Assembly (NCBI GenBank): GCA_030609135.1 | Contig: JAUWCU010000003.1 | Location: 55-64,054 of the forward strand | DNA from: Candidatus Stahliibacteriota bacterium | GTDB lineage: Bacteria; Hydrothermota; Tepidihabitantia; SM23-42 | Direction: 5' to 3' | Length of the DNA stretch: 64,000 bases | Part shown: one piece after another, positions 2,738 through 29,922 of the stretch | Position numbering within the stretch: position 1 is the first letter of the stretch | Layout of the letters: each line of letters begins with the position of its first letter | The notes under the pieces: generated by a model | Database searches by the model: none | Seen by the model: the letters and a program-made list of their open reading frames with translations, nothing else | What the model was told of the DNA's origin: nothing | Translations under genes and position numbers: made by a program

Positions 2738-2797
2738 GGGAGAGGGAAAAAGCCTGCTCTGAACCTTGTGCTGAATATCATTTCAGTATTGTTTCAG
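2738..2797 (+). repeat. ~58-nt repeat GGGAGrGrAAAAAGCyTGCyCTGAACCTTGTGCTGAATATCATTTCAGTATTGTTTCAG; inverted copy at 25566..25622
   Basis: The reverse complement of 25566..25622 matches this stretch with a few substitutions. Confidence 0.8.
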
Positions 2798-10987: not shown

Positions 10988-11009
10988 ATATCTATCCCCC
11001 TCTCTTTAT

Positions 11010-11145
11010 CTCTCCCCCTTTGAAGGGGGAGAGAAAGGTGGGGGTTCGTTCGGAATTTACCGGACATTATTGTGATTCCTATGATTGAAAAATTGTCAAG
11101 CCCAGAAGGGCTTTCCCACAATATGTGGGAGCGGGCTGCCCGCGA
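11010..11145. repeat. Hairpin-repeat cluster between recX and alaS
   Basis: ctctccccctttgaagggggagag (11010..11033) is the same module type as in the pdp insert. 11097..11145 (caagcccagaagggctttcccaca..tgggagcgggctgcccgcg) is an inverted relative of 25663..25745. Confidence 0.7.
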
Positions 11146-11148
11146 TTA

Positions 11149-11748
11149 TCATTCTTTAATAATTTCATATACAATGCTCGGGGTGAATCCTCGAGTCAGC
11201 AAGCGACGGACAAGTTTCTGGCGTTCTTTAGGATTTTTTATATCTAAATTGCCCGCTTTTTTTTCGATGTAATTTCTTATCAGTTCTCCCTCATCCCTTG
11301 TGTCAAGCAAATTCGTAATGATTTCTCTATCAACACCCCTTCTAGTCAGTTCGCTTAAGATGAAACGATTCCCCTTTGGCTTCAAGTTTGTATAGTCATT
11401 TACAAAAGCCCTGGCAAACCGTTTATCGTCAAGTGTTTTATCAGCGATCAATTCGTCAATCACTTCATCTGCGAGTGAATTGTCAAAACCAATACGCATC
11501 AGTCTATCCCTGAGTTCCTCAACTGATCTTTCACGATAGTGGAGTATTTTGAATGCTCGCTCCATGATTTTGGCTTTATCTGCATGGTGCACAATTTCAT
11601 CAATTTCCCGGTCGGTAATTTCAACACCTTCATACAAACCATACTGGAGAACTATTTCCTTTGGTAATCCAAATCTGAATTCACCGTCGATAAATATGGA
11701 ACAACGTTTCCTATTTTTTTTCTGAGGTTCGATCTTGCTTATCTTCAT
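11149..11748 (-). CDS. recX: RecX-family recombination regulator
   Basis: 199 aa, helical-repeat composition. It lies immediately downstream of recA and overlaps it. Confidence 0.7.
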
Positions 11749-22826: not shown

Positions 22827-24278
22827 CTAATGAATTGTTTCTCGTATCAATTTTGTACTACGGCAGGATTTTCTTTTGATCGTAAATACTGCATGCATTT
22901 GTTTGGCTACAGCCCTTGCTTTTGATCGGTTGTCACAAATGATTTCTATTAAACATTCGCCTTTTTTTACATAATCACCGATTTTTTGGTTGACTTTAAA
23001 TCCACATGATGGGTCGATTTTGTCTTCCTTTTTAAGTCTACCCCCACCCAATTGTACGAGCAACATGCCGATATCAAAAGTATCAATATGATGTATATAC
23101 CCTGTTTGTTGTGCTTTGATTTTAATTCTATTTTTTGCTACTGGTAAACGTGAATAATCATCAATGATACGAACATCACCACCCTGATAATGAATAATCT
23201 CTTTAAATTTATTTAAGGCTTCACGGTTTGCTATCTTTTTCTCAAGGAGGTTTTTCCCGCCTTTAATTTTAGCGAGCTTAAGCATTGCCTTGCCAAGCTC
23301 GAACGTGACTTCCATCAAATCCTTTGGACCACTGCCCTTTAGCGCCTCGATCGTTTCAATAATCTCTAAAGAATTGCCTATATAGTTACCTAATGGATTA
23401 TTCATATCAGTTAGGATGGCGATGACTTTAACTTGGAATCCCCCGTTGCTTGCGGCGTGGGATGAGATATAATACTCCCTCTCCCTTGAGGGAGAGGGTA
23501 GGGGTGAGGGTGAAATTGAAAGTAAGATACCCTGCCCCAAGGGGCAGGGAGCTTCATTCTTTTTGCAACGAGAGTCTCGTTGCACTCCAAAGCGTTTGCC
23601 GATTTGAATCATGGTCCGCGCAAGCTTTTTTGCTTTTTTATAATCAGTCATGAATGCGCCACTGCCAAATTTCACATCGAGCACCAGACCATCGAGATTT
23701 TCAGCAAGTTTCTTAGACATTATGCTTGCGGCAATGAGAGGGATTGAATCAACCGTTGCTGTTACATCGCGCAAGGCATATATTTTTTTGTCAGCGGGCG
23801 CAATTTCTCCGGTTTGTCCAATCATGGCAACGCCAAGTCTTTTTAACTGGCGCTTGAATGCTTTGAGCGTTAGATTAGTACGAAACCCGGGGATTGATTC
23901 TAATTTGTCTAAAGTACCACCTGTATGACCCAGACCGCGACCCGAAATCATGGGCATACAGATACCACATGATGCCATCAAAGGTGCCAGAATAAGTGAT
24001 ACCTTATCACCGACCCCGCCCGTAGAATGCTTGTCGATCTTTGGCTTTTTAATTTCTGAAAGGTTGAGCATCTTTCCAGTGTGCATCATGGCTTGCATCA
24101 AATCAGTGGTTTCGTTAATATCCATACCCTGAAAATATACCGCCATTAAAAAGGCAGCCAGTTGATAGTCAGGGATATTGTGTTTTGTGTATTCAGAAAT
24201 CAGATACTTTATTTCGTGTTCATTTAATTTTTTACCATCACGTTTTTTACGAATAATATCAAGGACGCTAAATTCCAT
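22827..24278 (-). CDS. pdp: pyrimidine-nucleoside (thymidine) phosphorylase carrying a 50-codon in-frame insert
   Basis: KHSTGGVGDKVSL, SGRGLGHTGGTLDKLE, ALRDVTATVDSIPLIAASIMSKK. Start moved to ATG 24278 (MEFSVLDIIRKKRDGKKL..). Confidence 0.9.
   Translation of the reverse strand: MEFSVLDIIRKKRDGKKLNEHEIKYLISEYTKHNIPDYQLAAFLMAVYFQGMDINETTDLMQAMMHTGKMLNLSEIKKPKIDKHSTGGVGDKVSLILAPLMASCGICMPMISGRGLGHTGGTLDKLESIPGFRTNLTLKAFKRQLKRLGVAMIGQTGEIAPADKKIYALRDVTATVDSIPLIAASIMSKKLAENLDGLVLDVKFGSGAFMTDYKKAKKLARTMIQIGKRFGVQRDSRCKKNEAPCPLGQGILLSISPSPLPSPSREREYYISSHAASNGGFQVKVIAILTDMNNPLGNYIGNSLEIIETIEALKGSGPKDLMEVTFELGKAMLKLAKIKGGKNLLEKKIANREALNKFKEIIHYQGGDVRIIDDYSRLPVAKNRIKIKAQQTGYIHHIDTFDIGMLLVQLGGGRLKKEDKIDPSCGFKVNQKIGDYVKKGECLIEIICDNRSKARAVAKQMHAVFTIKRKSCRSTKLIRETIH
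23433..23582. repeat. 150-nt hairpin-repeat insertion inside the pdp reading frame
   Basis: Three hairpins: ccctctcccttgagggagaggg (23477..23498), ccctgccccaaggggcaggg (23530..23549) and tgcaacgagagtctcgttgca (23564..23584). Same module types as the intergenic repeats at 11010 and 25617. Confidence 0.8.
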
Positions 24279-24912
24279 TACACCCCATAGCTTCGCGCAA
24301 TCGCTTGCACGATGCGCATTTACCGCACATTTCTTTTTTGCCAAGATAGCACGAGTAAACATATTGGACAGGCGCCTTGTATTTTAGTCCGAGTTTGTAG
24401 ATTTGTTTCTTTGTATATTCAAGAACAAAGCTCCTCACCTTAACCTTGGTAAGTGTGCTGAACATTAGGGCGTGGTTTATTGCTGCCATGAATTGTGGTC
24501 TGTTGTCCGGGAATTCTTCGGCTTCTTCGCGGTTAAACCCTGTAATAATGAACTCGGCGCCTAAATATTCTGCATAACACGCCGCAATATTTATGAAAAG
24601 ACCATTTCTGTTTGGAATCCAAACGTTCTTTAAGTTGCTAAATTTCCTAATCCTGACATTTTTGGACTGAAGCATAAGGAGTTTCTTGAATTCTTTGAAA
24701 AAAGGTATTTTGATAACCTTGTGTTTGATTTGTAATGCCTTACATATCTTTCTGGATGCGGAAATTTCCATTTTTGCAGCCCGTTGGCCATAATCAAATG
24801 TTAGCGCAAATAGCGGTCTTGTTTTCTTCTTGGCTATTGTCGCGCTGACTAAGGAGTCAAGACCGCCGGATAGGAGGATGATGCTCTTCAATTGGCGAGA
24901 TTGCTTCGTCAT
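24268..24912 (-). CDS. queC: 7-cyano-7-deazaguanine synthase
   Basis: PP-loop LLSGGLDS; C-terminal Zn motif CGKCASC. Start moved to ATG 24912 (MTKQSRQLKSIILLSGGLDS). The upstream 63 codons of the track ORF are repeat DNA. Confidence 0.9.
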   Translation of the reverse strand: MTKQSRQLKSIILLSGGLDSLVSATIAKKKTRPLFALTFDYGQRAAKMEISASRKICKALQIKHKVIKIPFFKEFKKLLMLQSKNVRIRKFSNLKNVWIPNRNGLFINIAACYAEYLGAEFIITGFNREEAEEFPDNRPQFMAAINHALMFSTLTKVKVRSFVLEYTKKQIYKLGLKYKAPVQYVYSCYLGKKEMCGKCASCKRLREAMGCNGI

Positions 24913-25173
24913 TTCATTCCTCGCAATGACAAGGAGAGAGGGGTTCCTCGCAATGACAAGGAGAGATGAGTATTTTCGAATGACGCAAGGAGTAGGGGCT
25001 TTAGCCCCGTCGTATATCGAAGCTTTGAAGATGTGAGGCTCAGAACCTCTGAACTTCTCAACTTCGAGATTGCTTTGGGGCTGCGTGTCTTGCAATGACA
25101 AGAATGGTGGGTATTCTTTGCCCGACCGATGAGTGTGTCATTGCGAGCCTGAACGAAGTTAAGGCGTGGCAAT
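24913..25173. repeat. Repeat cluster between queD and queC
   Basis: Two tandem CCTCGCAATGAC-aaggagaga units, the 63-nt unit at 24992..25054, and GAGATTGC../..GTCATTGCGAGC..GGCAATCT units of the 'gtcattgcga...gaagcaatctc' family. Confidence 0.8.
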
Positions 25174-25533
25174 CTAATCTTCATAATATGTGACGGTATT
25201 GTTACGTCCTTCCCACACCGTGACCGCTTTCATCATATTAATTTTTTTCTTCATTTCATTAAAAACATACATCGCGACATATTCTGCGGTGGCATTACGT
25301 TCTTTGAAATATTTAAGCTCATTCAAGTTTTTGTGGTCGAGTTCAGAAAGTATTTCATCAAGCGCGGTTTTCACACGTCTGAAGTCAATAGCCATCCCTA
25401 TATTATCCAGCTTATCCACTTTTAATATTACTCTTACCTGATAAGTATGGCCGTGTATACCAGCACAATCACCAGGATATCCTTTTACCTGGTGTGCTGC
25501 TGAAAATATTCCTTCAACTGAAAGATCAAACAT
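25174..25533 (-). CDS. queD: 6-carboxy-5,6,7,8-tetrahydropterin synthase
   Basis: 119 aa; HGHTYQVRV zinc-ligand motif; size typical of QueD. Confidence 0.9.
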   Translation of the reverse strand: MFDLSVEGIFSAAHQVKGYPGDCAGIHGHTYQVRVILKVDKLDNIGMAIDFRRVKTALDEILSELDHKNLNELKYFKERNATAEYVAMYVFNEMKKKINMMKAVTVWEGRNNTVTYYED

Positions 25534-25804
25534 TATCTCCCCCTAATATAAAACACCTCCACCCACTGAAACAATACTGAAATGATATTCAGCACAAGGT
25601 TCAGGGCAAGCTTTTTCCTCCCCCTTCCAGGGGGAGGAAGACAGTTTGCAGTCTTTTCCTTGTGGGAAAGCCCTTCTGGGCTTGATATTCGCGGGCAGCC
25701 CGCGCCGCTTCGCAAGGCGAGGCCGGGCAAGCCCGCTCCCACTATGCAAATGCCTAAAACACCTAAACCCCGTTAGATGTGTACTATCTAAATGGGGTAA
25801 ACAC
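25534..25804. repeat. Repeat cluster between the DUF4416-like gene and queD
   Basis: Contains the inverted copy of the 2738 unit (25566..25622), the hairpin cctcccccttccagggggagg (25617..25637) and a relative of the 11097 unit (25663..25745). Overlapping track ORFs here look repeat-encoded. Confidence 0.8.
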
Positions 25805-29689: not shown

Positions 29690-29811
29690 AGGGCGGAGAG
29701 AGTAGATGGAGTGCAACGGCTTGCCGTTGCATGCAGTAGCAAGCTACTGCACTCCGTAGCAAAATCAAGGGATAAGGGATAAAGATGTGTCCAAGGTTTC
29801 TTAATTAAAAG

Positions 29812-29846: not shown

Positions 29847-29922
29847 GGCGCCATCGTCTAGCTTGGTTTAGGACGTCGCCCTCTCAAGGCGAAGATCACG
29901 GGTTCAAATCCCGTTGGCGCTA
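29847..29922 (+). tRNA. tRNA-Glu (anticodon CUC)
   Basis: Hand-folded cloverleaf. Acceptor GGCGCCA/TGGCGCT (G1-U72); D arm GTCT/GGAC; anticodon stem TCGCC/GGCGA with loop CTCTCAA; T arm ACGGG-TTCAAAT-CCCGT. No encoded CCA; a T-run follows. Confidence 0.9.

Follow-up and report, generated by a model that had tools for sequence, protein, structure and literature searches.

The stretch analysed here comprises 64,000 nucleotides of contig JAUWCU010000003.1 from a Candidatus Stahliibacteriota bacterium (positions 55 to 64,054; hereafter the 64-kb window, in whose coordinates all positions are given unless a locus handle precedes them), and its subject is pdp, the gene for pyrimidine-nucleoside phosphorylase (Pdp). 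This coding sequence (CDS) lies on the minus strand at 22827..24278 and encodes 483 aa from MEFSVLD, with the stop codon at 22827-22829. It contains an additional 153 nt (23430..23582, minus strand), or 51 codons (Q233..V283), in frame and without a stop. A first-pass annotation made from the letters had recognised the in-frame, stop-free insert at 150 nt and 50 codons; residue counts against homologues give 51 codons, the junction in uninterrupted orthologues (..RxGVKV..) holding one Val only. Genome records place the lineage in Candidatus Stahlbacteria / Stahliibacteriota (WOR-3), and the closest species representative in GTDB is Ca. Stahlbacteria CSMAG_1267 (locus L010) at 84%, with no identical GTDB representative.

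Three perfect hairpins were found in the insert, exactly where they had first been read: one with a 10-bp stem at 23477-23498, one with a 9-bp stem (CCCTGCCCC-AA-GGGGCAGGG) at 23530..23549, and one with a 10-bp stem and a 1-nt loop at 23564-23584. A fourth, imperfect hairpin (ATCCC-CCG-TTGCTTG-CGG-CG-TGGGAT, 23438..23463) lies at the promoter-distal end of the cassette and is paired in the minimum free-energy structure; no relatives of it were found in the window or in 205 fetched loci. The GC content of the insert is 0.53 vs 0.39 in the remainder of pdp, and a 181-nt sense RNA of the cassette folds at -67 kcal/mol (z = -4.4 vs dinucleotide shuffles). GC-rich hairpins of at least 9 pairs number 12 in the whole window vs 0-3 in shuffles, and three of the 12 are packed into 108 nt of the pdp cassette. 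The encoded peptide is Ser/Pro-rich, and two of the three sense frames are stop-free. The open frame alone is weak evidence, because a shuffled insert is stop-free with a probability of ~0.14 (~0.05 when a length that is a multiple of three is also required).

The site was compared among the best 120 homologues from 5.8 billion proteins by counting the residues between I226 and T290. Fourteen residues separate these anchors in 113 of the 120 (+0), 23 in the six proteins P0001-P0006 (81-91% identical; +9, QRDSRCKKI), 40 in P0047 from locus L009 (+26) and 65 in the window protein (+51). At the DNA level, empty sites were found in L005, L012-15 and L076, of which L005 and L013 read ..CGATCCAGTGTAAAAGTC.. 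and L014 and L015 read ..GCAGGAGTAAAGGTC... Sites with only a repetitive extragenic palindrome (REP), the module that carries the hairpin at 23564-23584, were found in L001-4, L008, L010 and L011 (..TTTGGAG-TGCAACGAGACTCTCGTTGCA-AAAAAA-TTAAAGT..), with a degenerate copy in L007. This 27-nt insert is common to relatives down to ~81% protein identity and is lacking from the 113 homologues. The window alone has the REP plus 126 nt, entering at the A-run: GCAAAAA, then G AAT GAA ... TTC CAA G, then TTAAAG. At the same codon L009 carries GGAGTACGAAAAACA-TGGAGTACAACAAGGGGCCTTGTTGCGAAAAATA-TGGAGTGCAATGAGTCCCCTCATTGCAAAAAAATA, a tandem array of 2.5 REP units (78 nt, 26 aa) with perfectly paired stems of differing sequence. 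None of the inserts at this site, whether of 27, 78 or 153 nt, shifts the frame or introduces a stop. Judged from these alignments, the pdp site is an insertion hot spot that was expanded independently in L009 and in the window. The L009 gene (L009:962-2257) also lacks ~40 residues of the C-terminal PYNP_C region (..GYIYH, then KIYTKTGKHVKKGEC..); it may be decaying, or its assembly may be faulty.

The cassette had been described at first as a single unit, but the preserved states resolve it into two events, one nested in the other: an old REP of 27 nt that a clade has in common, and a later 126-nt addition specific to the window. Across these sites, step 1 can be traced as the entry of the 27-nt REP, in an ancestor from which a Stahlbacteria sub-clade descends, at the boundary of the Gly-Val and Lys codons (..KRxGV and KV..), and step 2 as the addition of 126 nt at the REP A-run, apparently in the window lineage only. 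The first-pass annotation had held that a homologous segment across the wider family would make the insert an ancestral loop, here one lost by most lineages. Nine of the 51 residues are indeed common to a clade of at least eight lineages, and to that clade only; the other residues have no such counterpart, the 113 closest homologues have no insert, and the DNA is recognisable as REP and boxC/TM repeat (the latter described below). With all PDB structures, from Bacillus to human, likewise uninterrupted, we regard an ancestral loop as effectively refuted.

Apart from the insert, the enzyme appears to be complete. Window Pdp matched PDB 1BRW with E = 6e-120 in two stretches, the gap placing query residues 232->285 against chain residues 230->232, and all three expected Pfam domains were found (Glycos_trans_3N, Glycos_transf_3 and PYNP_C). 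An AlphaFold2 model built from a 62-sequence alignment had a mean predicted local distance difference test (pLDDT) score of 83 and superposed on 1BRW with a target-normalised template-modelling score of 0.95 and a root-mean-square deviation of 1.8 A. In this model the pLDDT fell below 50 for residues 232-281, whereas the flanking helix 213-229 and strand 284-291 were confidently predicted. The insert is therefore placed by the model in a loop between helix and strand and is predicted to be disordered, the remainder matching 1BRW. Window Pdp keeps all residues that are invariant across 16 and across 62 aligned homologues, and its open reading frame (ORF) has 0 frameshifts and 0 stops. The pairwise ratio of non-synonymous to synonymous substitution rates (dN/dS) was 0.15 against L001 (dS 0.24) and 0.12-0.18 against the other REP-bearing relatives, each value being an average over both lineages since their split that sets no date for the 126-nt insertion. 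The run omitted the first ~50 alignment columns and kept the cassette columns, which are gapped or identical in each pair, so the values are barely affected. By these ratios, pdp has been under purifying selection. Synteny of queC and pdp is also kept in the window, with an undisturbed overlap of start and stop codons. These findings agree with the earlier claim that hairpin repeats lie in frame inside an otherwise intact enzyme: most homologues lack the insert, fold and motifs are preserved, and the gene is under purifying selection.

The same data bear on whether pdp is inactivated or decaying, so that the 153-nt cassette would be a lesion in a young, still-open pseudogene. Fifty-one disordered residues in a compact alpha/beta domain could harm the enzyme, the probability of a stop-free insert given above is not negligible, and the L009 gene, which carries the other expansion at the site, has lost ~40 C-terminal residues. 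On the other hand, the frame is intact, the invariant residues are retained, dN/dS is 0.15, the REP form of 9 aa has survived deep divergence (dS ~0.7), the inserts of 27, 78 and 153 nt and several more in an epimerase gene (below) are all in frame, and the queC synteny with its overlapping start and stop codons has been kept. We therefore consider a pseudogene improbable.

A further reading is that the cassette does not reach the mature protein, being removed by translational bypassing (in the style of T4 gene 60 or mitochondrial byp), as an intron or as an intein. The codon GGA (Gly231) lies directly 5' of a stable hairpin and a second GGA is found three codons ahead of the insert's end, and the two could serve as take-off and landing codons; no stop codon follows the take-off site, however, and all insert variants keep the frame and lack stops, a property that bypassing would not need. 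No Rfam intron or ribozyme matched at gathering score; for the cassette as a whole Rfam gave no meaningful match (best, ClpQY_promoter at 23 bits vs a gathering score of 42), and for the whole window tRNA only. Removal by any of these routes is very improbable. An intron was rejected on the Rfam result, and an intein was rejected too: the peptide starts with Q/V and ends with FQ(V), lacks an N-end Cys/Ser and a C-end His-Asn with nucleophile, and at 51 aa is too short. Most likely, the cassette is transcribed and translated as a disordered Ser/Pro-rich loop in an enzyme that would still function.

The step-1 module (23558..23588, minus strand) is a GGAG-tagged REP hairpin with a 3' A-run and corresponds to the identical 27-nt insert in the relatives' pdp genes. 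It consists of the hairpin TGCAACGAGA-C-TCTCGTTGCA followed by AAAAAA, with GGAG in front. The 10-bp perfect stem and 1-nt loop make it a stable palindrome within the 20-40 nt typical of REPs, and where REPs carry the tetranucleotide GTAG, GGAG stands at the same position (GGAGTGCAACGAG) in the pdp copy, in the copies that flank the transposase gene described next and in the copies at 29708. GGAG(T) at 23585-23588 doubles as the Gly231-Val232 codons and may be target rather than inserted DNA.

In three sister loci (L001-3), a gene of 215 aa between queC and pdp, directly upstream of pdp, encodes a REP-associated tyrosine transposase (RAYT). It scored 113.8 bits with the NCBIfam model REP_Tyr_transpos (NF047646; cut-off 80) vs 25.9 bits with IS200 (cut-off 55), and its sole PDB relative is E. 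coli TnpA-REP (4ER8), with which the HUH and YI..NPVKHG motifs aligned. By these matches the transposase next to pdp in the sister genomes is a RAYT, distinct from IS200 TnpA. The gene is flanked in L001-3 by three direct units CTATGGAGTGCAACGAG-TCC-TCTCGTT.. upstream and by inverted units downstream (GGACTGCGACGAGTCTCTCGTTGCG, other strand), and the flanking sequence is the sequence found inside pdp, GGAGTGCAACGAGACTCTCGTTGCA. Units GGAGTGCAACGAG..CTCGTTGC flank the RAYT gene in inverted orientation in L001-3 and in L010, which share the layout of three direct units upstream and inverted units downstream; this is the arrangement of a REPtron, and the window lacks it. A RAYT also adjoins pdp in L010 (94% identical to the L001 RAYT) and at L015:3-467 (86%). 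The REPtron, RAYT plus flanking GGAG-REPs, occupies the queC-pdp junction at L001:2200-3000 and L010:9180-9960. The L015 RAYT is 86% identical to that of L001 while the L015 pdp, which is uninterrupted, is only 67% identical to window pdp. At L007:3920-4050 the RAYT has been deleted to a 14-codon remnant fused to pdp. The queC-pdp overlap is undisturbed in the window, L004, L008 and L011, where it reads ATGG(A/G)GTG(C/T)AATGG, like the 5' end of the REP, and at the REPtron site the queC 3' end reads ATGGAGTG(C/T)AA.

Within the window, a REPIN-like inverted pair of the same REP family (GGAGTGCAACGGCTTGCCGTTGCA and TGCAGTAGCAAGCTACTGCACTCC; 29708..29755, plus strand) lies in an intergenic position upstream of a tRNA gene (29847-29922), and it is the sole true relative of a cassette module there. 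The module types of the cassette had also been equated with intergenic hairpins at 11010 and 25617, which is right in part only; these, at 11009 and 25615, are C-run hairpins (CTCCCCCT/AGGGGGAG) of similar composition and different sequence.

The step-2 insertion (23432..23559, minus strand) was delimited by codon alignment with L001, L004, L008, L010 and L011; it is found in this window only and adds 126 nt net, 128 nt replacing the 'AA' of an L001-like state, with a junction ambiguous by 1-3 nt. Its content is the imperfect hairpin, a boxC/TM motif and one orphan hairpin, that at 23530..23549; hairpins of this CCCTGCCC..GGGCAGGG type were found neither in the 205 fetched loci nor elsewhere in the window. 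The motif (23477..23510), which includes the hairpin at 23477-23498, has the form CCCTCTCCC-TTGA-GGGAGAGGG-TA-GGGGTGAGGG, and its G-rich strand is the plus strand, the template strand of pdp. Conservation extends beyond the motif to ~23470-23518, and homology to other copies spans ~41-47 nt. The pattern CCCTCTCCC-N4-GGGAGAGGG-T-N-GGGGTGAGGG was found in at least 120 metagenome contigs whose base compositions are unrelated, often in inverted pairs or beside other hairpin modules. The two step-2 hairpins within 23477-23549 resemble weak intrinsic terminators on the pdp sense strand (minus) by consensus match only, with tails AGTATTATAT and TATCTTACTT; terminator-like sites number 6 vs 1.7 expected in the 1.8-kb region.

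The boxC, PIT or 'TM' intrastrand-triplex motif was described by Holder et al. 2015 (PMC4666352), who reported it from >260 genomes and linked it to local insertion/deletion instability; triplex formation by the E. coli motif was demonstrated in vitro only, and the motifs had neither promoter nor terminator activity in E. coli (PMC4666352). The window module is 90-97% identical over 38-41 nt to copies in 4556 of 5426 complete E. coli genomes, and none of the eight E. coli matches listed lay under an annotated feature. It differs from E. coli TMECO no. 2 in the second loop only (window CCCTCTCCCTTGAGGGAGAGGGTAGGGGTGAGGGT, E. coli CCCTCTCCCTTGAGGGAGAGGGTTAGGGTGAGGGT). With a C-block, two G-blocks of ~9 nt and short loops, 23477-23510 is by its sequence a boxC/TM motif. 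In E. coli K-12 the motif is 'always located intergenically' (PMC4666352), whereas the window copy, the only one in the 64 kb, lies in frame in a CDS of 483 codons, at a depth of 295 codons, and its C-rich strand is the sense strand. When 120 metagenome loci were screened for TM motifs well within long open frames and the ten longest of these frames were translated, nearly all ten proved to be spurious frames of high-GC contigs, where the real genes start after the motif. One metagenome contig (L196:299-1822, plus strand) encodes a polytopic membrane protein with a weak GT87 match (16.7 bits, below cut-off) and apparently two in-frame TM-type modules (..SPHPSLLPEREG.. and ..APSPGWERVGVRA..) between transmembrane segments; to judge from its translation, it may be another coding-region boxC/TM.

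Only the ~45-nt TM core of the 126-nt segment had other copies in a blastn search of the window and the 205 loci, and the 42-aa step-2 peptide had no relative among 5.8 billion proteins. The 126-nt step could on this evidence be an assembly or binning artefact, for example a repeat-induced chimera, with the 9-aa REP form as the true allele: the 126 nt are unique to the window, the exact protein (as 483-aa or 511-aa product) matched no record, no protein shares even three 5-residue words with the step-2 peptide, and short GC-rich palindromes are error-prone in short-read assembly. Yet both edges of the extra DNA in the gene are precise, the frame is kept and no stop is introduced, and a chimeric join would not normally return to the same gene. 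The insertion also lies at the A-run of a pre-existing REP, the independent assembly L009 is expanded differently at the same site, and many independent assemblies of the epimerase have variable module inserts of a comparable kind. An artefact thus seems slightly less probable still than a pseudogene, and much less so than a genuine insertion.

We then considered whether the intragenic hairpins are kept as nucleic-acid structures, as a binding site for RAYT or another protein, an element for mRNA stability or pausing set between the halves of the alpha/beta domain, or an internal transcription attenuator. In six REP-bearing lineages (window, L001, L004, L008, L010 and L011), a 28-nt stretch over the REP has 0 variable sites, although pairs of these lineages differ by a dS of up to 0.6-0.9 and variation affects 53% of third codon positions. 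Among 1262 windows of 21 nt, only 30 match this invariance, grouped in three clusters. This suggests, at the level of aligned DNA, that the hairpin itself is under constraint or has been homogenised from other REP copies. The perfect pairing of the L009 variants despite their different stems and the terminator-like character of the two step-2 hairpins on the sense strand also favour a structural role. In L007, however, the stem has been lost through three uncompensated, non-synonymous changes and the ORF is intact, which argues against an essential role for the hairpin. Moreover, gene conversion among REP copies, or peptide constraint combined with small numbers (~9 third positions), could equally give the invariance; the U-tails behind the hairpins are weak, and the absence of promoter and terminator activity of PIT/TM in E. 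coli (PMC4666352) also speaks against such a role. We hold a structural role to be possible though unlikely, and it would complement rather than exclude the explanation that we favour.

That explanation is a nested two-step in-frame insertion of short hairpin modules into a loop of a working enzyme. We consider this overall account probable and have less confidence in each of its mechanistic steps. In step 1, RAYT would have placed the REP by an IS200/IS605-style single-strand insertion 3' of the GGAGT supplied by the Gly-Val codons; we infer this because the empty sites (as in L014) and the queC 3' end at the REPtron have such a sequence. The empty sites of L014 and L015 read GCAGGAGT followed by AAAGGTC, with GGAGT already there. 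In step 2, the intragenic REP would have acted as a landing pad or replication-fragile site at which further modules accrete by transposition or template switching; the added DNA could have arrived as a single composite insertion, in several smaller insertions, or through template switching at a stalled fork. Selection would keep only variants that are a multiple of three in length, stop-free and in a tolerant loop.

Several observations weigh against this account. The REP tag is GGAG, not the canonical GTAG; RAYT was not found in the 64-kb window by tblastn; and the window holds only two copies of the REP family, compared with four in L001, a locus of 7 kb. The 126-nt step stands alone, no second assembly, other copy or peptide relative having been found, and it shows neither a target-site duplication nor a terminal inverted repeat (the comparison with the L001 junction gave no clean duplication). 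For the boxC/TM motifs of E. coli, no associated transposase was found (PMC4666352). The dN/dS values, being undated averages, do not speak to the time since the insertion, and the C-terminal deletion in the L009 allele means that pdp may be decaying in some lineages.

In-frame repeat insertion is, on alignment evidence, not confined to pdp. A gene for an NAD-dependent epimerase (UDP-glucuronate 4-epimerase-like; 39416-40618, plus strand) has ~14 and ~60 extra residues when aligned to PDB 5U4Q. The extra DNA contains a GTCATTGCGAGG..GACGAAGCAATC unit at 39656-39700, of a type that is clustered upstream of queC (24895-25175), and a module hairpin at 39816-39846. An alignment of 20 homologues revealed three in-frame insertion hot spots whose content differs even among close relatives: SPLGGEGKGEG-type peptides (TM-encoded), RHCEESSDEAIS, VIASEARQS, others, or nothing. 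Homologue lengths range over 229-437 aa among the 120 listed and 321-437 aa among the 21 aligned. Among the module signatures scanned, pdp and the epimerase were the only long ORFs of the window with hairpin-module families deep inside. A bolder proposal, which we rate below even the structural role discussed above, is that hairpin modules of Stahliibacteriota (GGAG-REPs, boxC/TM and 'GTCATTGCGAG..CGAAGCAATC' units) routinely colonise loops of housekeeping genes, and that an intragenic REP, kept for its nucleotide sequence, then serves as a docking or fragile site and goes on recruiting modules. If this were true, the lineage would possess a repeat-driven generator of fast-evolving surface loops in otherwise conserved enzymes, whose footprints would be the pdp inserts of 0, 9, 26 and 51 aa and the three hot spots in the epimerase.

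Mosaic clusters of palindromes are known in another setting: bacterial interspersed mosaic elements (BIMEs) are extragenic mosaic clusters of short palindromic units, REP variants of one family, that grow by accretion. Compared by general description only, the pdp cassette is likewise a mosaic palindrome cluster and differs in being neither extragenic nor built from one REP family. The closest parallels are intragenic REPs with GTAG/CGTC tags, described by Di Nocera et al. 2013 in Opitutus terrae, Thauera and others (PMC3733652). There, single REPs, dimers or clusters encode 20-82 aa in frame and are thought to survive in loops or linkers, clusters encoding 43-82 aa are reported, and some sites were hit twice (PMC3733652). 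The first-pass annotation had likened the cassette to the Rickettsia palindromic elements (RPEs; Ogata et al.), for which in-frame insertion is established, at least as they are cited in PMC3733652. The analogy is fair: intragenic REPs and RPEs are, like the pdp modules, short palindromes in frame in genes for known proteins. With RPEs only the behaviour, in-frame insertion into functional genes, is shared, and the tag (GGAG vs CGTC) sets the two apart.

The pdp case differs from these intragenic repeats in its lineage (Stahliibacteriota / WOR-3), its host gene and its GGAG tag, in that the cluster mixes unrelated families (REP, boxC/TM and orphan hairpins), and in that the empty, the one-step and two alternative expanded states are preserved in relatives. 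With REP/RAYT systems (REPtrons and REPINs; TnpA-REP 4ER8; NF047646), it shares a 21-nt hairpin with a conserved 5' tetranucleotide, inverted copies flanking RAYT in sister genomes, the REPIN-like pair at 29708-29755 and the HUH and Tyr motifs, but here the tag is GGAG instead of GTAG, a copy lies inside a CDS, the 64-kb window has no RAYT and copy number is low. The boxC/TM module shares with the motif of E. coli (PMC4666352) its C-block / G-block / G-block architecture and nearly the same sequence. In-frame miniature inverted-repeat transposable elements (MITEs) also add residues to proteins, for example the Coxiella burnetii QMITEs (PMC5896051), but they have terminal inverted repeats and target duplications, neither of which was seen in the pdp insert; no terminal inverted repeats were found at the ends of the 126-nt or the 153-nt segment.

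The first-pass annotation named no description for this kind of lineage or for this enzyme; the lineage, the host gene and the mix of modules are indeed new, but in-frame REPs have been published from many other bacteria (PMC3733652), and in-frame REP and RPE insertions as such are thus not new. The literature found to mention Stahlbacteria does not deal with repeats. Besides lineage and host gene, the new features are the GGAG tag, the position of a boxC/TM motif within coding sequence, the mixing of families in one cassette and a preserved series with a RAYT next door. The locus offers a rare stepwise record of non-coding palindromic repeats turning into protein sequence, and it shows a boxC/TM motif, nearly identical from E. 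coli to a candidate phylum, inside a coding region, a location not found in the E. coli work. The epimerase suggests that the pattern may be genome-wide; if so, such repeats would have visibly shaped the proteomes of Stahlbacteria, as they have those of Rickettsia and Opitutus. Such insertions matter for annotation (spurious 'hypothetical' extensions, split domains) and for loop evolution.

Other repeats were noted in the window. The upstream part and 5' end of queC (24895-25175, minus strand) hold clustered 'CTCGCAATGAC / GATTGCTTCG' modules; one of these apparently contains the probable start of queC (MTKQSRQLKSIILLSGG), and the mechanically called ORF runs 60+ codons further through repeats (SLLVIARNPSLLVIARNE...). 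An exact 39-nt repeat, CTGAACCTTGTGCTGAATATCATTTCAGTATTGTTTCAG, occurs at 2759-2797 (plus strand) and 25566-25604 (minus strand) and also at L007:2429-2467. Ahead of each window copy stands a G/C-run hairpin or a GGGAGAGGG block plus AAAAAGC. All copies are followed by G-rich sequence, with a gene shortly downstream (queD at 25533). This repeat matched no Rfam family; it could be a leader or regulatory RNA. The CTCCCCCT-loop-AGGGGGAG hairpins lie at 11007-11036 and 25613-25641 in the window, at L010:8057 and 14485, at L076:6254 and 7341, and also in L001; their positions in L001 and L010 look orthologous to the window copies. The hairpin copy at 11009 is followed by a G-run (AAGGTGGGGGT) and is hence TM-like, and the neighbouring GCCCAGAAGGGC and GCGGGCTGCCCGC hairpins recur in inverted orientation at 11100-11150 and 25670-25705.

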